A DNA stretch of 64,000 nucleotides from a virus: positions 1 to 64,000 of the IMG/VR virus record IMGVR_UViG_3300042878_001826, one strand, 5' to 3'. The notes beneath the pieces were generated by a model, which did not search any database, was not told the DNA's origin, and was given only the letters and a program-made list of their open reading frames with translations. Below are positions 4,081-59,850 of the stretch, piece after piece. Position numbers and translations under genes: made by a program. Numbering within the stretch: position 1 is the first letter of the stretch; each line of letters starts with the position of its first letter.

Positions 4081-5037
4081 TTATTTTATAACTTTTTCAG
4101 AAGATCCATCCGTGTAGTATATTATGACGAGACCTCTATAATATGTTAGGTCGACTTCCTGACCAAGTATATTTGTAATCTTCTCAATCTCTTTAGACTT
4201 AGAGTTCATTCTATTGTCAATAGAGATTATATCAGAGTATTTAAACTTACCATCATAATCTGTTTGTTTTAGTTTGTAGTAGTTTATTAAACTTTCCACA
4301 CTTTGATCCAAAGAATAATAGTTTAGTTGTATAGAAGAGTTTCCTGCACCACTTTGTCTATCAATAATTTCCCAATCAATACCATTTATTGATTTTTCAA
4401 TCGTAAAGAAGTCGTTGTTATTTTCTGATGCGGTAGACCAAAATAGTTTATTCAATAGGTTATCTCTCATTACTTTGAAATATAAAAGCTCTATCGGTAA
4501 TCCAACTGGAGATGATTCATATATAGTTAAATCATCTAAATATACCGATGTTGGACCACCGTATACTGTTTTAGTCCATATTTGAAAATAACCAGTTCCA
4601 GTATACGTTGAAGTGATTGTTGTACTCCATTGATACCAAGTATTCCAATTTGAATTACAACTTGAATTTGAAAAAGTTTCATTGGTTAATAGAGTAGTTT
4701 GATTTGCTAGTTCATTAGTATTAATTACAACTGAACACGCACGTTTAGTATAAAATGTAATAGTATATATACTATCTTTTTTAAAGTTAATTGGAATATA
4801 GATATAAATTGAATTACCGTTAGCAGCAGATGAAAATCTAGCTGAGTATTTAGTAGCATCAAATACACTTCTATAGTTACCCGTCGCGGATTCATTTCTA
4901 ACAAAACTCCACACACTAGATGTTGAACTCCACCCAGTAGGTGCTACAGCACTAAAATGTTGGTCTACTAAATAAGTTTGTGTAAATGCAAAGATACTCG
5001 TCAAAACAAATATCGTTGCTAATAATAATTTCTTCAT
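4081..5037 (-). CDS. Secreted Bacteroidota-type protein: signal peptide, beta-sandwich domain, T9SS-cargo-like C-terminal region
   Basis: MKKLLL signal peptide; LPIELLYF..WSTASENNNDFFTIEKS..YYKLKQTDYDG; NILGQEV..YTDGSSEKVIK end. Confidence 0.75.
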   Translation of the reverse strand: MKKLLLATIFVLTSIFAFTQTYLVDQHFSAVAPTGWSSTSSVWSFVRNESATGNYRSVFDATKYSARFSSAANGNSIYIYIPINFKKDSIYTITFYTKRACSVVINTNELANQTTLLTNETFSNSSCNSNWNTWYQWSTTITSTYTGTGYFQIWTKTVYGGPTSVYLDDLTIYESSPVGLPIELLYFKVMRDNLLNKLFWSTASENNNDFFTIEKSINGIDWEIIDRQSGAGNSSIQLNYYSLDQSVESLINYYKLKQTDYDGKFKYSDIISIDNRMNSKSKEIEKITNILGQEVDLTYYRGLVIIYYTDGSSEKVIK

Positions 5038-15609: not shown

Positions 15610-16161
15610 ATGAAAATAGTTGAAAGAGAGTCCACATTAAAGTGGTACGTACTAAGAGCACAAAGCAACAGAGAAAAATCTGTTTCTGAAAAGCTAATCA
15701 AAGAAGGAGAAGTAGGAGACCTTATGGGTAAACTTGGAAGAGTCATCGTTCCTATTGAAAACTCATTCTATTTGAAAAACGGAAAGAAAGTAAAAAGAGA
15801 GAAGATTAAATTCCCTGGATATATCTTTATCGAGACCAACGCAATCGGAGAACTTAAATATTTCTTAAAAGGACTTAACGGTGCTCAAGGATTCTTGACA
15901 AGTAGAGCAGGAGACATACTTCCACTTACACAGTTAGAAGTTGATAGAATGATTGGTGAACAACAAAGAGTAAAAGAAGAAGTCGAAGTTGAAGTAAGAT
16001 TCATCGTTGGAGAAGAAGTTCAGATATTAGATGGACCTTTCAATACTTTCACTGGAAAGATTGAGCAAGTAAGCGGAGAAAAAGTAAAAGTTGCTGTTTC
16101 TGTATTTGGTAGAATCACTTTAATCGAGCTTGGAATAAACCAGATCGACAAAAAAGCATAA
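15610..16161 (+). CDS. nusG: Transcription elongation/antitermination factor NusG
   Basis: WYVLRAQSNREK, FPGYIF, KOW GEEVQILDGPFNTFTG, VSVFGRIT. Confidence 0.93.
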   Translation: MKIVERESTLKWYVLRAQSNREKSVSEKLIKEGEVGDLMGKLGRVIVPIENSFYLKNGKKVKREKIKFPGYIFIETNAIGELKYFLKGLNGAQGFLTSRAGDILPLTQLEVDRMIGEQQRVKEEVEVEVRFIVGEEVQILDGPFNTFTGKIEQVSGEKVKVAVSVFGRITLIELGINQIDKKA

Positions 16162-36046: not shown

Positions 36047-37258
36047 TTAATCTGCGTTTTCGTCTTCTGCAACATCTATGAAGAAAAGAGACGCATCTCT
36101 TTCTTTCAAGAATTCTCTGGCGACTTTTAACTTTCTTGTTTGGTCTGAAACCCAGTCTTTAGCTAAGTCATAGACATCAGCATTTCCTTTTGATAAAGAC
36201 ATAACATATCCAAAGTTTCTTTCTTTCTTATATTTCAAAGCGAAAGTCTTTCTCATTAGTTGTAATCTTAAATCTCCAGTCCAGTCTTTACCTACACCAC
36301 CTTCTAAAAACAATTCGTAAGAGTTGTTTATATCTTTAACTTTTTCAGACACAGTGTGTTTTACAACAGCTATTATCTTTTCGATTCTAGCGTGTGCTTC
36401 AACTTCTTCTTCTGGTACTTGACCAAGAACGTCGTCTATTTTTTCATCCAAGACATATCTAACCAATACGTGTTCTCTGTATAAGTCGTTAGTCAATAAA
36501 CCATGTCTTTCACAATACCAAGCAGTCTTAACTTTTATGAAAAGTCCGTTGGAGAATTCTATGATCCATCCTTCTTTGTCCTCTACTGATTGAGACAAAT
36601 CAACAAGCTCGTCTAATGAAGCAACATCAGATGGTGCCACTTTCAAAGAACCTATTTCTTTAGAGAATTTAGACAAGTCTAAGTATTCTCCAGTTTTGTT
36701 ATCTCTTAATCTCAATAATATCAATTCTTCGTCTAAGTATCTTAAAACGATTCTGTTGTTTGGTGCAACATATTCGAATACAGCCACATAGTCTTTTTCT
36801 AAAGACCAGTCTACAAATCTTTTCAAATCTGCGTTTGATTTATACAATCTGTTCATACCGGCTGCTTGGTCAGATTCAAAAGACATTTTAGATTTACCCA
36901 ACACAGATCCGTTTGGTAATCTTATAAAGGACGCAACAGAACCATCTTCTTTGTTGTAGATAGATCTTATACCTAAATCAGCAACCAAAGAGTATTGAGA
37001 CTCTGGAACTTGGTTTAAGTTAAAGAATTTGTGTAGTAATAAATATCTGTTGAACAAAGAACCATCTTCGTTGAAGACAAAAGTCAAGCCTCTCATTTCG
37101 AATGCAGAGTTGTCTATGAAGTCAGAGTACATTGCTAAACGGTAGTTGAAGATAGATACATTATATCCTTCAACCACGAATTTTGATTCGTAGAATGGAG
37201 CATCTACACCTAAAGTAAGTGCAACCGCTTCGTCGTATGATAATAAGTATCTTTTCAT
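36047..37258 (-). CDS. RNA ligase 1 (T4 Rnl1-like)
   Basis: EMRGLTF, KFFNLNQ, motif I KEDGS, FEYVAP.NRIVL.Y, EGWII, KVKT.WY. Confidence 0.88.
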   Translation of the reverse strand: MKRYLLSYDEAVALTLGVDAPFYESKFVVEGYNVSIFNYRLAMYSDFIDNSAFEMRGLTFVFNEDGSLFNRYLLLHKFFNLNQVPESQYSLVADLGIRSIYNKEDGSVASFIRLPNGSVLGKSKMSFESDQAAGMNRLYKSNADLKRFVDWSLEKDYVAVFEYVAPNNRIVLRYLDEELILLRLRDNKTGEYLDLSKFSKEIGSLKVAPSDVASLDELVDLSQSVEDKEGWIIEFSNGLFIKVKTAWYCERHGLLTNDLYREHVLVRYVLDEKIDDVLGQVPEEEVEAHARIEKIIAVVKHTVSEKVKDINNSYELFLEGGVGKDWTGDLRLQLMRKTFALKYKKERNFGYVMSLSKGNADVYDLAKDWVSDQTRKLKVAREFLKERDASLFFIDVAEDENAD

Positions 37259-55639: not shown

Positions 55640-55930
55640 ATGAAGATATTAAGATTTGAAGAGTTTGAAATAAACGAATCTCTACCTAATAAGAAAACGG
55701 TAAATCAGTTGAAAAAGGTTATGAAGCAGTCTGCTAAAACAGATATTGGAAATCGTATTTCGGACATGAACAAACAGGGAGCAAACCTACACTATATGCA
55801 AAATCCTATCGAGACTGGCATTGAATCGAAAGAAGACTATGACGAACACAACAAGAAATTCGTTTCTTCTTGGAACCTAAAAGGTATGTTAGGACCATTC
55901 AAAGGAGAAGACAATAAACAAAACAAATAA
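55640..55930 (+). CDS. Putative small virion internal protein
   Basis: MKILRFEEFEINE; TAATATATA 4 nt upstream. Confidence 0.6.
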   Translation: MKILRFEEFEINESLPNKKTVNQLKKVMKQSAKTDIGNRISDMNKQGANLHYMQNPIETGIESKEDYDEHNKKFVSSWNLKGMLGPFKGEDNKQNK

Positions 55931-55940
55931 ATATTTAAAA

Positions 55941-56702
55941 GTGATTTATTTAGAAAAATATTTGGATTTTATGAGTAAAGGAATATTAATACCTATTGGT
56001 GGGGCCGAAAGTAAAGGATCTAAAGTAGATATAGATAATAGTATTCTATCAGAAGTTATAAAAGTTTCTAAATTTGGAACGGATTCAAATATTATAATAA
56101 TTCCAACCGCATCATCTTATCAAAATGAAATAGATTCTGAATATAGAACTACTTTTGAAAGATTTGGATGTAAAAATATAAAAACATTATTCATATCATC
56201 AAAAGATGAAGTAGATTCTGCTGATAATTTGGATCTATTAAACAATTCAAATATTTTAATGTTTTCAGGTGGTAATCAATCAAAAATAAGTGAATGTTTT
56301 TTAGGTACTAAATTTTTAGAATGTTTAAAAAATAAATTTAACTCAGAACACTTTGTTTTGGTGGGTACATCAGCAGGAGCAATGTGTATGTCAGAAAACA
56401 TGATAACTGGCGGTGATAAAAATGTTAAATGTGGAATAGGTCTTTCTTTAATACCCGAATTTATAATTGATAGTCACTTTATCGAAAGAGATAGACTCGG
56501 TAGACTAGTTGAGGCAATTTCTATTTATCCAAATAGAATTGGTGTTGGTTTGGCAGAAGATACAGCAATCATAATAAAGAATGGTAAATTTAGGGTTATA
56601 GGATCTGGCAATGTTACCGTTTTCGATTCCAATGATTTGAAAAATGATTTAGAGTTTAGCGTTTTATCGTCAGGTGATACATTTAATATTAAAAATATAT
56701 AA
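55941..56702 (+). CDS. cphB: Cyanophycinase (peptidase S51)
   Basis: IPIGGAE, IPTAS, FSGGNQ, GTSAGA, IDSHF.ERDRLGRL, GLAEDT. Confidence 0.85.
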   Translation: MIYLEKYLDFMSKGILIPIGGAESKGSKVDIDNSILSEVIKVSKFGTDSNIIIIPTASSYQNEIDSEYRTTFERFGCKNIKTLFISSKDEVDSADNLDLLNNSNILMFSGGNQSKISECFLGTKFLECLKNKFNSEHFVLVGTSAGAMCMSENMITGGDKNVKCGIGLSLIPEFIIDSHFIERDRLGRLVEAISIYPNRIGVGLAEDTAIIIKNGKFRVIGSGNVTVFDSNDLKNDLEFSVLSSGDTFNIKNI

Positions 56703-56707
56703 ATAAT

Positions 56708-57592
56708 ATGAAATATCTAAGCAAATACGAAAGTTTTTTAAATATCATAAAAGAGGCGGTATCCAATAGAAAGTTGATTCTTCTATCAGGACCTAGTGCT
56801 TCCGGAAAGTCATATCTGGCGGAAAAAACTTTAGGTGCAAAAAATTGGTACGAAGGAGATACTTCTGTAGCTTTGATTGGAACCGACAACTTTGGTGGTG
56901 AATCGAAGAAGACATTTCCAATGTTCTCAAAGTTGTTGAAGGAATTTGGTTGTCCGGAACTGGCTAAGTTTAAAGGAGACTGGTATTGGCTTATAGAGCT
57001 TTACAAAGATGACTACAAGAAATGGCAAGAAGTTGCATCAGATGAAGAGAAGAAGAAATACGAAGAACTAAAAAGAAAGCTTCCTTTTGAGAAGTCACAA
57101 GACGAAAGTAAAAACTTTCCACACTACGGAAAGGATGGTAGGATTTGTGGAATGGCTTGGACAGCACACCTGTTACCAGAATCAGTAACCACCATTATAT
57201 TCGACGACATATCAACAGGAATAGAAAACTATTTCAAAGTGCAAGACATTCTTGCTTTCACTCCATTGGATTGGATGATGAAGAACATCAAGTCTAGGGA
57301 AATCAATGTGAACGAAGAAGGAACTACCTTATATCAATATTGTGATTGGTTTATGGCAACAGACAAACCAGACTTAGATAATAAGATGTATACCGCAGAA
57401 ATACTGACTGAGCTTTTAACAGAAGCAGGTCATGACAATCCAAAAGAAATACTAATCAGATTAGGAGTAAAAGGAGAGTTAGAGAATGAATTTTATATAA
57501 CAACAAAACCAGGAGTTAAACCTGAAATTATTGTAAACACAAGAGACAAATCTACAGGAAGAGCAATCGGAATAGATGACTTATCGATATAA
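56708..57592 (+). CDS. P-loop kinase-like protein, putative virion internal
   Basis: MKYLSKYESFL N-terminus; GPSASGKS; IIFDD. Confidence 0.65.
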   Translation: MKYLSKYESFLNIIKEAVSNRKLILLSGPSASGKSYLAEKTLGAKNWYEGDTSVALIGTDNFGGESKKTFPMFSKLLKEFGCPELAKFKGDWYWLIELYKDDYKKWQEVASDEEKKKYEELKRKLPFEKSQDESKNFPHYGKDGRICGMAWTAHLLPESVTTIIFDDISTGIENYFKVQDILAFTPLDWMMKNIKSREINVNEEGTTLYQYCDWFMATDKPDLDNKMYTAEILTELLTEAGHDNPKEILIRLGVKGELENEFYITTKPGVKPEIIVNTRDKSTGRAIGIDDLSI

Positions 57593-57610
57593 AAAATTAA
57601 TATATAAACT

Positions 57611-57898
57611 ATGAAATATTTAAAAACATTTGAAGGCTACAACGATAAGAGTTTAGCAAGAGAGATTGCAGAAGACTTACTTCCACAACTACAAAAGATT
57701 AGAGACGAAAAAGGAATCTTTACCGTAAGTATGTTCGACAACTTCATGGAAGAAAGAAAAGGAGATATGAAATTGACTGACGAAGTTATTTCAGAACTTG
57801 TTGATTTAGGATTCCAATTCGACTATGATGATTCAGAAGACGAATATGACAGAGATCCTTTTGAAGGATACCCAGGAATGGAATACAGCTTAAACTAA
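57611..57898 (+). CDS. Putative small virion internal protein
   Basis: MKYLKTFE; TAATATATA 4 nt upstream. Confidence 0.6.
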   Translation: MKYLKTFEGYNDKSLAREIAEDLLPQLQKIRDEKGIFTVSMFDNFMEERKGDMKLTDEVISELVDLGFQFDYDDSEDEYDRDPFEGYPGMEYSLN

Positions 57899-57902
57899 AT
57901 AA

Positions 57903-57928
57903 AAAAGAGACTCAACTGAGTCTCTTTT
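57903..57928. terminator. Bidirectional intrinsic terminator
   Basis: aaaagagactca-ac-tgagtctctttt. Confidence 0.85.
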
Positions 57929-57929
57929 G

Positions 57930-58100
57930 TTATTTTAAAACCATATATTTTACACCATCAACAATCTTAACGACATATTTACCAGTGTCTTTTTTCTCGA
58001 CTTTTTTAGTAGCACGCTTAGACGCAGTTGCACCTTTAACACTTTTTTCAGCCTCACCAAATTTGTTTTTTAAAACTTCCCTCATTGAATATCTTTCCAT
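57930..58100 (-). CDS. 56-aa basic protein (not in ORF track)
   Basis: Manual translation MERYSMREVLKNKFGEAEKSVKGATASKRATKKVEKKDTGKYVVKIVDGVKYMVLK; TATCTTTG at 58126-58133. Confidence 0.6.
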   Translation of the reverse strand: MERYSMREVLKNKFGEAEKSVKGATASKRATKKVEKKDTGKYVVKIVDGVKYMVLK

Positions 58101-58171
58101 AGCTTTTCGTTTTTAGATTGTCTTACAAAGATAAGAATCTTTTTGAATGTGGTCACTATAATATATAGAAT

Positions 58172-58702
58172 ATGAAAATAAAGAAATATACACAGTTTTT
58201 AAACGAATCAAGTGGGTTTAGTCTTGGTTGTGTTATGATAGAAGTTCCGGTATCAAACTGGGAAGAAATAACATCATCTATTACAGAAGAAGATCTTTAT
58301 ACAGATGAAGGAAAGCCAGGTATTCAAGATAATCCTCATGTTACTATTCTTTATGGATTACACGAAGAAGTTTCTTTGAATCAAATAAAATCTGTATTTG
58401 AAGGACTAAATGAGCGTATAGATATAAAGATAGAAGGAATAGGAGTATTTGAAAATGAAAACTTTGATGTAGTAAAATTCAATGTTGTTCCAATCGGTAC
58501 TTTACAAAGTCTACACGACAAACTTTCCGAATTTCCAAACTCTAATGAGTATCCAGAATACGAACCACATATAACTATAGCTTATGTTAAAAAAGGAAGT
58601 GGTAAGAAATACGAAGACTTAGAATACAGACATAGTGTTGATAATGTTAATGAAGTATGTTATTCAATACCAGGTGGTTCCAAAGAATATTTCAAAATCT
58701 AA
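58172..58702 (+). CDS. 2H phosphoesterase (T4 57B/Acb1-like)
   Basis: PHVTILYG and YEPHITIAY HxT motifs; MKIKKYTQFLNE N-terminus. Confidence 0.8.
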   Translation: MKIKKYTQFLNESSGFSLGCVMIEVPVSNWEEITSSITEEDLYTDEGKPGIQDNPHVTILYGLHEEVSLNQIKSVFEGLNERIDIKIEGIGVFENENFDVVKFNVVPIGTLQSLHDKLSEFPNSNEYPEYEPHITIAYVKKGSGKKYEDLEYRHSVDNVNEVCYSIPGGSKEYFKI

Positions 58703-58884
58703 TAAACTTATACATCAAATATTTATAGAAAATAAAAAATGATTGAAAGTATTTTGTATCGTGTTATTTTTGGCCGAAAATATATGAAAAAAAATCGAAA
58801 TAACCTAAACTTTTAATCACATTTTTAATATAAATAATAACTAAACAGAGAGTTTAGTATTAAAAACAAATAAAAAGCAATATT

Positions 58885-59850
58885 ATGGCAAATGAAATGG
58901 ATGACCTATTTAATGGAGGTTTAGACAGCAAAATGGACTTCTTAAATGAAGTAAAATCAGGTAACAACAACGACGGAATCTACAGAGTGGATCTTAAATT
59001 GGCAAAAGACGAAAAACGTGGATGGAGATCTGTAGTAAGATTTTTACCTAACTTAACACAAGAAGGAAAGATTGGACAATCTGCGATTGAAAAAATCTCT
59101 CACTATGTAGACATCAAATCTGCGAAAGAATTAAGTGGATGGTTTGACTCAGCGAAAAACTTCAATGAGAAATGTGCATTGACAGATTTGTATTACCAAA
59201 TGCAAAACTCTAAAAATGCAGTATTGATTGAGAAATCAAAACAGTTAAAGTTTTCTAAAAAATACTACTCTTACGTTTTAGTATTAGAAGATGAGCAACA
59301 ACCAGAATTAGTTGGTAAGATCATGGTTTTCCAATACGGTAAAACTATTAAAGACAAAATCATGGCTGAGAAAAACGGAGAAATCTCTGGAGTACCTTGT
59401 AATGTTTTTGACTTATCAGCTGGTAAAGAATTCGTTCTTGTTGTTAAGAAAATCCAAACTGGTGATGAAACATACCCAGATTACAAAGCAAGTATGTTTA
59501 GAGGTGAAACAACTTCATTACCAATCTTCAAAGGTGGTGTTTTCAAAAACGCTCCATTAGAAAATGGTAAGATTGCACCAAACGTACAAGGTGTTGTTAA
59601 AAACTTCTTGTTAGAAAGAACTGTTGAGTTAGAAGATTTCGCTCCAAAGAAATTATCTGAAGAACAACAAGTTAAAATCACAGAGATTAGTAACTTCTTA
59701 ACTGGAAAAGCTAGTTCTTCTTTTTCAAGTGCGAAAGCTGAATCTAAGCCATCATCTGATGACTTCTCTTTTGAAGAAAACTTCTCAGAAAAAACACCAG
59801 CTACATCTACAGCATCTGCAGATGAAGATGATTTTTTCGCAGACATTTAA
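58885..59850 (+). CDS. Single-stranded DNA-binding protein (T4 gp32-like)
   Basis: VRFLP, YYSYVLV..D..PE..GKI.VFQYGK.I, FDL..G..F, YPDY..S; acidic tail DEDDFFADI. Confidence 0.85.
   Translation: MANEMDDLFNGGLDSKMDFLNEVKSGNNNDGIYRVDLKLAKDEKRGWRSVVRFLPNLTQEGKIGQSAIEKISHYVDIKSAKELSGWFDSAKNFNEKCALTDLYYQMQNSKNAVLIEKSKQLKFSKKYYSYVLVLEDEQQPELVGKIMVFQYGKTIKDKIMAEKNGEISGVPCNVFDLSAGKEFVLVVKKIQTGDETYPDYKASMFRGETTSLPIFKGGVFKNAPLENGKIAPNVQGVVKNFLLERTVELEDFAPKKLSEEQQVKITEISNFLTGKASSSFSSAKAESKPSSDDFSFEENFSEKTPATSTASADEDDFFADI

Follow-up and report, generated by a model that had tools for sequence, protein, structure and literature searches.

Several of the elements considered here are already known singly: phage 2H phosphoesterases, the Acb1 enzymes, the 2H domains of polyvalent proteins, predicted in 2017 to be packaged, and the capsid targeting sequence of phage T4. 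Polyvalent proteins have been argued to be packaged in capsids and injected, and the consulted parts of that account describe 2H domains that lie within polyvalent proteins and others that form solo phage proteins, in no case with linkage to RNA ligases; the roles proposed are those of a Usb1-like RNase or of an enzyme that degrades 2'-5' or cyclic nucleotides (Iyer et al. 2017, PMC5512222). For T4, the consulted parts of a further account state that the first 10 residues of the internal protein IPIII suffice for packaging, that residues 4 and 7 are the main determinants of targeting and residues 8 and 10 those of processing, and that gp21 cuts after L/I-X-E (PMC9026906). The gene described here may join these themes. 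It lies at 58172..58702 (+) and encodes 176 residues and a stop codon. The stretch of virus DNA that holds it, 64,000 nucleotides and here called the window, opens a linear contig of 150,251 bp from an uncultured huge phage (IMG/VR record IMGVR_UViG_3300042878_001826; G+C about 33%, CheckV completeness 61%). The reading that we favour, with a probability of roughly 0.45, is that its product is a tagged, probably capsid-loaded counter-defence 2H enzyme of a polyvalent-type phage clade.

The product is a genuine 2H phosphoesterase. Both HxT motifs reported in a preliminary description of this DNA are present and form an intact tetrad, H56-V57-T58 at 58337..58345 (+) and H133-I134-T135 at 58568..58576 (+), the latter inside YPEYEPHITIAY and followed by a Lys-rich loop. 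Among 90 stand-alone family members, aligned as A1, H56 and H133 are invariant and T58 is at least 90% conserved. Membership at the level of the superfamily follows from the Pfam model 2_5_RNA_ligase2 (PF13563; 39.7 bits, cutoff 27); LigT_PEase (PF02834; 29.2 bits, cutoff 23.3) and Acb1 (PF23474; 29.1 bits, cutoff 27) are also matched, the last outscored by PF13563, and most homologues bear the same precomputed Pfam Acb1 match. The PHROG match is to family 755, 'RNA ligase', and the NCBIfam model ThpR (TIGR02258, RNA 2',3'-cyclic phosphodiesterase) scores 39.1 bits over residues 23–150, under its equivalog cutoff of 65.7. The AlphaFold2 model has a mean per-residue confidence (pLDDT) of 88.2 and a predicted template-modelling score (pTM) of 0.83, and matches 2H folds at Z 11–13. 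The enzyme is probably active.

The nearest public records by protein search are uncultured phages of 484–642 kb. The orthologue in LR745206.1 (634 kb) is 58.7% identical across all 176 residues and that in LR756502.1 is 51.1% identical; Maribacter phages rank after these huge-phage records, at 36–37% identity and over residues 18–150 only. A DNA-level search of the phage collection found no near-identical DNA.

The first 12 residues (MKIKKYTQFLNE; 58172..58207, +) form a candidate capsid-targeting propeptide, presumed to be cut after E12. A linker of residues 13–18 (58208..58225, +) leads to the first 2H strand at residues 19–24. In the model the leader is a loose helix of residues 4–14 with pLDDT 46–64, the linker is disordered (pLDDT below 50 at residues 11–15), and the core starts at residue 19. 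The pattern [FYW]xx[FYW][LIVM]xE falls within the first 17 residues of 118 of the 120 closest homologues, which are 56–95% identical, and mostly at residues 6–12; P0045 and P0119, of which the latter is truncated, lack it. The residue after the leader glutamate is serine in 105 of these proteins and alanine in 6, and substitutions are conservative, with K, R or I at position 2 and L, I, V or M at position 10. By this pattern of conservation the leader, which the preliminary description took for a virion-targeting peptide, is real and under selection.

The leader is also separable from the enzyme that carries it. Among the 90 stand-alone family members, which extend to 34% identity, a loose pattern finds it in 51 and a strict pattern in 34. 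Several of the members without it begin at the core, and others have a different K/L-rich extension ending in L-x-E; the Maribacter-phage orthologue has about nine unrelated residues ahead of the conserved G-C-[VL]-M strand. (In Maribacter phage Molly_5, locus L007 4974–5498, the annotated 2H start at 5013 is probably misplaced downstream, since the conserved F-G-C-L-M strand is gained by starting at an in-frame ATG 13 codons upstream.) The internal 2H domains of multidomain relatives align from query residue 9–19, and these alignment starts, together with the leader-less family members, place the leader outside the 2H fold.

On unrelated proteins the leader recurs. A regular expression for it (Met, Lys/Arg, aromatic-x-x-aromatic) matches 22 of 190 N-termini on the contig, whereas of 926 internal Met sites it matches 22 (odds ratio 5.4, p=2.6e-7), and by eye some 16–18 of the 22 are convincing. 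They include the products of the four genes that begin at 55640, 55941, 56708 and 57611, a class-I glutamine amidotransferase (GATase), and many proteins of no known family. The GATase domain protein, encoded beyond the window at contig positions 92359–92961 (−), has the upstream motif described below as well as the leader. In LR745206.1 the same leader is found on genes flanking the 2H gene, and a stand-alone CCA-adding enzyme (L011 1387–2559) begins with it, as does the small gene just before. On these sequence comparisons the leader is portable, being attached to unrelated proteins and missing from family members elsewhere.

The likeness to T4 is specific. In the T4 record IPIII and IPII begin MKTYQEFIAE followed by Ala, and IPI begins MKTFKEFTST. 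Leader residues Y6, F9, L10 and E12 correspond, with equal spacing, to T4 Y4, F7, I8 and E10, so that all four mapped positions are matched. Both sequences are N-terminal, combine aromatic-x-x-aromatic with L/I-x-E and a small following residue, and occur on unrelated cargo. They differ in that the leader has two extra residues before the first aromatic and is found on about 10% of contig proteins rather than on a handful, and in that the protease of the relative is only distantly T4-like. It seems slightly better than an even bet that the leader is a capsid-loading propeptide that is both loaded and trimmed. Tyr6 and Phe9 would then dock the protein to the prohead core, and cleavage after Leu10-Asn11-Glu12 would fall to a prohead protease like gp21. 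The enzyme so matured, starting at Ser13, would remain in the head until it passed with the DNA into the next cell, where it would apply metal-independent 2H chemistry to a 2',3'-cyclic phosphate or to a phosphodiester next to a 2'-OH.

A search of the 150-kb contig for an S77 prohead protease, a T4 portal and a full Gp23 found none of them, and two sub-threshold scraps of Gp23. Because the contig is a fragment, this absence says little, and the type of head rests on the relative LR745206.1. The head module of that phage contains a T4-type portal (194.7 bits) and a T4-type major capsid protein (88.7 bits) with an I-N-E motif in its N-terminal region. Between their genes lies a head maturation protease (phrog_207, 1e-31; Pfam S80, 24.6 bits against a cutoff of 23.4). 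The protease, encoded at 198546–200459 (L008), is fused to a scaffold-like coiled region in which Y-[LIV]-[AS]-E-[NH] is repeated 11 times, once every 14 residues. This region holds 28 [LI]xE sites, compared with 12.8 ± 3.0 in 1000 shuffles (maximum 22), and has the look of a row of L/I-x-E cutting sites built into the protein. The T4 scaffold, gp22, is made for cleavage at L/I-x-E. Since the L/I-x-E-rich scaffold resembles gp22, the protease of LR745206.1 is probably of T4-like specificity.

Eight bases at 58160..58167 (+) form a promoter-like motif, AATATATA, followed after 4 bases by the ATG of the 2H gene. The motif, usually as TTTTTAATATATA, occurs 47 times on the two strands of the 150-kb contig, where about 20 copies are expected from dinucleotide content. 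It lies within 60 nt upstream of 35 of the 190 open reading frames (ORFs) and within 100 nt upstream of 39; among these 39 the distance from its end to the ATG is exactly 4 nt in 16, 5–6 nt in 5, 18–29 nt in 14 and greater in 4. It is found within 40 nt of 14 of the 22 leader-type genes but only 21 of the 168 others (odds ratio 12, p=5e-7). Large genes of tail-fibre-like and structural-like type (83648, 142219, 145770, 47832, 49418) have it upstream as well, and none was found upstream of the genes for topoisomerase, single-stranded DNA-binding protein (SSB), UvsX or dCMP deaminase. This distribution would fit a late class of genes whose products are made together with virion parts. The late-type promoter of the preliminary description is present as a promoter-like element. 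It differs from the exact T4 late consensus, TATAAATA, which was rejected as the ground for a late type: the contig has 29 copies of that consensus, hardly more than the 23 or so to be expected, and none of them is upstream of the 2H gene. The 4-nt spacing is seen, for example, at 2062, 25814, 36047, 47832, 55640, 57611 and 58172; spacing as short as this would leave the mRNAs leaderless or nearly so.

Several observations weigh against a capsid-loaded counter-defence enzyme. A tag on about one protein in ten implies far more cargo than in T4, the contig lacks the head genes sought, and the LR745206.1 protease scores 18.8–20.1 bits with the S77 model, below the cutoff of 27. As regards an RNA-end substrate, the RNA ligases, the Pnk-like kinase and the metallophosphoesterase of the contig are far from the 2H gene and untagged; in the consulted parts of PMC5512222, polyvalent-type 2H domains are never linked to RNA ligases; and domains fused in polyvalent proteins need not share one pathway. 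A further point concerns PDE-9, a phage 2H phosphodiesterase (PDE) of Burkholderia phage BCSR5 (PDB 9Q2G/9Q2Y), which has a functional N-terminal segment of 15 residues. The consulted parts of the relevant preprint identify these residues as a substrate lid (bioRxiv 10.1101/2025.08.21.671373), and the closed-lid structure 9q2g aligns to the present model from residue 1, the open form from residue 15.

It is therefore possible, at odds that we place well below even, that the leader is not a capsid address. It could serve the enzyme as a lid over the substrate or as a propeptide, or could be an N-terminal feature general to the proteins of this phage and concerned with folding, localisation, turnover or the efficient translation of near-leaderless mRNAs; the enzyme's place of action would in either case be the cytoplasm of the producing cell. 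Besides the PDE-9 lid, the missing head genes and the frequency of the tag, this explanation can draw on the motif itself: in 21 of 39 genes its end lies 4–6 nt from the ATG, and many mRNAs may therefore have almost no 5' leader. Genes without the leader share that spacing, however (2062, 26932, 47832, 94482), and the leader is thus not needed for the layout. The recurrence of the segment on unrelated proteins distinguishes it from that of PDE-9 and argues against a role as a lid only: a lid specific to 2H enzymes would not be expected to turn up on proteins as different as the GATase, the CCA-adding enzyme and the peptidase-like and kinase-like proteins. The invariant Glu after L, I, V or M, followed by Ser or Ala, also resembles a protease site, as do I-N-E-S-like junctions between domains of fused homologues.

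Such junctions, of the form I/L-x-E-S/A, are often found between the 2H domain and the next domain in P0053, P0055, P0084, P0124, P0128, P0134 and P0135. Their similarity to the end of the leader hints at release of the parts by a protease.

The preliminary description called the enzyme Acb1-like and suggested structural comparison to Acb1. The comparison confirms a 2H fold and leaves the subfamily nearly tied. The best fold matches of the model are Usb1 (Z 13.2), TT0787 and drCPDase (both Z 12.6) and E. coli LigT (Z 12.3); PDE-9 follows at Z 11.9 (root-mean-square deviation, rmsd, 3.0 over 145 residues). Acb1 (7t26) has Z 11.7, with the lowest rmsd (2.7 Å over 131 residues) and the highest identity (21%) among the fold matches. 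Assignment to Acb1 as opposed to LigT, Usb1 or CPDase by Z score was rejected, the range from 13.2 for Usb1 to 11.2–11.7 for Acb1 being too narrow, and assignment by Foldseek likewise, with E-values all between 3.5e-6 and 7e-4. In BFVD the top matches come from Maribacter, Tenacibaculum and uncultured phages and are named 'RNA ligase superfamily' or 'cyclic phosphodiesterase', and Acb1-named viral models appear from rank 16 downward. The BFVD matches also include 2H domains in an actinophage 'capsid morphogenesis protein' and 'putative structural protein'.

Profile comparison gives a similarly divided picture. With the A1 profile, the archaeal LigT-like protein PH0099 scores 26.4 bits, phage FBB1 Acb1 24.7 and PDE-9 22.9. 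By hhalign the 90 family members match 21 Acb1 proteins with a probability of 96.2% (E 2.5e-9) and both HxT motifs covered, but the overlap takes in 81 of 152 Acb1 columns (residues 52–141 against Acb1 40–121), and kinship with Acb1 along the full length was not found. BLASTP against T4 Acb1 aligns 28 residues only (E 0.002), and the best local match is the stretch around the second HxT. The base-stacking residues of Acb1 are Y12, W74, F107 and W147, with an adenine contact at E141 and a C-terminal lid at 145–152 (Hobbs et al. 2022, PMC9117128, consulted in part). W74 aligns to F93, which is invariant in the family, and F107 to Y127; for Y12, E141, W147 and the C-terminal lid hhalign shows no aligned counterpart, and the C-terminus of the protein is modelled as ordered strands at residues 161–165 and 171–175.

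Thus the protein resembles T4 Acb1 (gene 57B; PF23474; PDB 7T26/7T27 for the homologue from phage FBB1) in its fold, its tetrad, its small single-domain form in a phage, its second-motif context [FY]x[DE]YxPHIT[IL][AS]Y and the aromatic residues that align with two of the four base-stacking positions, and differs in its 12-residue leader, its Lys-rich loop, its higher LigT/ThpR scores and an alignment restricted to the central 81 columns. The HxT..Y and [FY]P[DE]YxPH[IL]T[IL][AS]Y contexts are common to it, T4 Acb1 and PDE-9. With ThpR/LigT (TIGR02258, PF13563, PF02834; PDB 1VDX, 1IUH, 5LDM) it shares its best sequence models, Z scores of 12.3–12.6 and a match over nearly the whole domain; it differs in falling below the equivalog cutoff, in belonging to a phage-only clade, in having the leader and in motif contexts nearer to Acb1. 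On this evidence the phage clade lies between ThpR/LigT and Acb1, and 'Acb1-like' is a fair term for resemblance, not for membership.

[quoted passage not shown] The Pfam Acb1 match above threshold, the hhalign match across both HxT motifs, F93 and Y127 at the positions of W74 and F107, the low rmsd to 7t26 and the shared motif contexts all agree with this, and such a role was among those proposed for polyvalent-type 2H domains (PMC5512222, consulted in part). As reported in the consulted parts of a recent preprint, structural groups 3, 7 and 8 of the viral 2H PDEs act broadly on immune messengers and groups 2 and 5 cleave specific ones, whereas groups 1 and 6 cleaved none (Doherty et al., bioRxiv 10.1101/2025.08.21.671373). 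The incomplete alignment and the rank of Acb1-named models in BFVD speak on the other side. Bona fide Acb1 proteins bear PF23474 alone, and T4 Acb1 matched no NCBIfam model in the same run in which the present protein matched ThpR over residues 23–150. The fusion partners of the family, considered below, point to RNA ends. An Acb1-type function is accordingly a somewhat doubtful proposition.

T4 Acb1 itself adjoins ipI (L010 9592–10411, phage T4). Its first ten residues resemble the IPI leader in that positions 4 and 7 are Phe, position 5 is Lys and position 6 is acidic; in the alignment of 21 Acb1 proteins Phe is the majority residue at both 4 and 7, and T4 Acb1 has no L/I-x-E site ahead of the essential Tyr12. 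The likeness may be due to chance, or may reflect targeting without cleavage.

The wider relationships of the clade bear on both delivery and substrate. An exhaustive search returned 4282 representative proteins when the cutoff was E<=0.001, and 1655 when it was E<=1e-10. Besides the huge-phage orthologues, the nearest kin are 2H domains in proteins of up to 2398 residues (about 36–49% identity, E about 1e-25 to 1e-36) that also carry ART-PolyVal, PolyA_pol and DUF5661 domains. A domain scan took in 56 longer relatives (at least 262 residues) among the best 150, with 14 other long ones left out. The PolyA_pol head domain, a nucleotidyltransferase of CCA-adding or poly(A) polymerase type, occurs in 15 of the 56, mostly with an RNA-binding domain; ART-PolyVal occurs in 5, DUF5661 in 2 and Mom in 1. 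The E. coli CCA enzyme has an attached cyclic-phosphodiesterase domain. The LR745206.1 orthologue (L006 6001–7317), with 438 residues, consists of the leader, the 2H domain and an RNase_T-type DEDDh exonuclease (31.8 bits). Among the homologues compared only P0125 shares this extension; it was not found among the ORFs of the contig, and the C-terminal parts of other fused homologues are unrelated.

By domain content, the multidomain relatives are the polyvalent proteins of Iyer et al. 2017. The present protein shows close 2H kinship to the polyvalent domains and their solo counterparts (PMC5512222, consulted in part) and like them has no linkage to an RNA ligase; it differs in standing alone, its presumed ticket to the virion being a short, removable leader rather than fusion into a giant protein. 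The recurrence of the 2H domain in proteins argued to be injected, and the T4-like tag that it bears when solo, both favour delivery in the virion. RNA 3'-end repair had been offered in the preliminary description as the alternative to an Acb1 role, and the fusion partners point there at least as much as to that role. A survey of jumbo phages by the same group as PMC5512222 connects phage 2H enzymes with the 2',3'-cyclic phosphates left by tRNA cleavage and with RNA repair (PMC7824862), and 2H enzymes that leave a 2'-phosphate in RNA repair have been described (PMC9503650; both sources consulted in part).

Repair need not involve delivery. The protein could be an ordinary ThpR/LigT-type 2',3'-cyclic phosphodiesterase that heals broken tRNA in the course of infection for the Rnl1-type ligase of the phage. 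Its best family models are of LigT/ThpR type, and the contig encodes an Rnl1-type ligase (36047–37258), a second ligase-like protein (113809–115125), an AAA_33 Pnk-like kinase and a phosphoesterase; the leader-type neighbour at 56708–57592 has a kinase fold whose top match, a tied one, is the polynucleotide kinase 4gp6. The ThpR score of 39.1 bits is far from the equivalog cutoff, however, the 2H gene is linked to neither ligase gene, and the conserved tag would be left unexplained. We regard ordinary repair as improbable.

If the enzyme has the counter-defence role that we favour, the leading candidate for its substrate, at a little under even odds, is RNA, probably tRNA 3' ends bearing 2',3'-cyclic phosphates made by host defence RNases, on which it would work together with a CCA-adding enzyme, tagged in the same way in a relative. 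Immune cyclic or linear oligonucleotide signals of the kind cleaved by Acb1 come next, with about one chance in three, and the remaining, distinctly smaller share goes to other substrates (Usb1-like RNase action, 2'-5' oligoadenylate or ADP-ribose cyclic phosphate). RNA 2',3'-cyclic-phosphate ends are thus slightly favoured over immune cyclic nucleotides. They are suggested by the better LigT/ThpR scores, the frequent pairing with CCA-type nucleotidyltransferases, the RNase T-type fusion, the same tag on the CCA enzyme of a relative, and the tagged neighbour with a kinase fold. Immune nucleotides are suggested by the Acb1-like motif contexts, the Acb1 score over threshold, the absence of ligase linkage and the several viral 2H groups reported in the preprint cited above to cut messengers.

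The surroundings of the gene can be described briefly. A cluster of four leader-type genes (55640..57898, +) lies upstream, and three of the four have AATATATA 4–6 nt before the ATG. The first (55640–55930, +) encodes 96 residues. The second (55941–56702, +), given a GTG start, encodes a homologue of peptidase S51 (dipeptidase E/cyanophycinase-type; 77.1 bits), and its longest, GTG-started frame has a leader-like N-terminus. The third (56708–57592, +) encodes a P-loop kinase-like protein and the fourth (57611–57898, +) a protein of 95 residues. The unit is closed by a two-way terminator-like hairpin (57903..57928) with an 11-pair stem and T-runs on both strands; three terminator-like sites fall in 57500–59000, compared with 0.4 in shuffles.

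The product of the third gene has a Walker A motif and is modelled (pLDDT 91) as a P-loop kinase fold with a long helical insert, preceded by a low-confidence N-terminal helix of residues 2–15 (pLDDT 48–50) like that of the 2H leader. Its identification as a polynucleotide kinase was rejected: the top structural match is 4gp6 (Z 9.2, rmsd 3.7, 136 residues) with other kinases within 1 Z, all Pfam and NCBIfam P-loop kinase matches are sub-threshold, and atlas leads are below 0.9. Foldseek returned no match at E<=0.001. Gluconate, cytidylate and other kinases tie with 4gp6, and the model is described here only as a kinase fold.

Between the hairpin and the 2H gene is a small conserved ORF (57930–58100, −) for a basic product of 56 residues, which diverges from the 2H gene. 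In LR745206.1 translation of the opposite strand at this place gives a conserved product, and the small gene is therefore probably real. A 71-nt spacer, with AATATATA near its 3' end, separates it from the 2H gene. A gp32-like gene (58885–59850) begins 182 nt past the 2H gene, with no terminator-like site between them. In metatranscriptome contigs of at least 90% likeness from four runs (X1–X4), the gp32-like gene is covered in all four and parts of the 2H gene in X1 only; such contigs show neither starts nor strand, and RNA libraries can contain DNA, so that no inference about expression is drawn. The contig as a whole carries T4-like genes for replication and nucleotide metabolism: topoisomerase II subunits, gp32-type SSB, a UvsX-like recombinase, dCMP deaminase, the Rnl1-type RNA ligase and the beta subunit of ribonucleotide reductase. 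A scan of the window for tRNA genes found none. The window also encodes a NusG-like protein (15610–16158, +; NusG 55.4 bits and a KOW motif).

The literature searches made here found no account of stand-alone 2H and other enzymes with a T4-like address in huge T4-type phages, and a search pairing huge phages with capsid targeting returned nothing. Among the matches listed for capsid targeting sequences, prohead proteases and internal proteins, none concerned huge uncultured phages by title or abstract. The papers found on virion-packaged phage 2H phosphoesterases all come from one group, which predicted packaged 2H domains in polyvalent proteins. No substrate assay for the present clade was found in the literature consulted, although a member may have been assayed among the 75 phage 2H enzymes of Doherty et al.

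It is conceivable, though on balance unlikely, that these strands belong to a single arrangement, in which huge T4-type phages have split the polyvalent arsenal into dozens of separate capsid-addressed enzymes that are trimmed by the prohead protease and arrive with a ready kit for RNA repair or the erasure of signals. The tagged set would include the 2H phosphoesterase, the kinase-like and peptidase-like proteins and the amidotransferase and, in the relative, the CCA-adding enzyme. The uncut leader may cover the active site and so keep the enzymes quiet in the producing cell.

For the study of 2H enzymes, the family described here represents a large phage clade, with more than 4000 representatives, between LigT/ThpR and Acb1. 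If the tag is a capsid address, its leader and L/I-x-E site would provide a simple rule for predicting virion cargo in uncultured phages from sequence alone, and a naturally occurring collection of tags by which foreign proteins could be loaded into large capsids. Huge phages would then deliver enzymes besides DNA on a scale far beyond that of T4. The 2H enzyme would be at work ahead of the expression of any phage gene, a timing relevant to defences that cut tRNA and to those that signal through small nucleotides.

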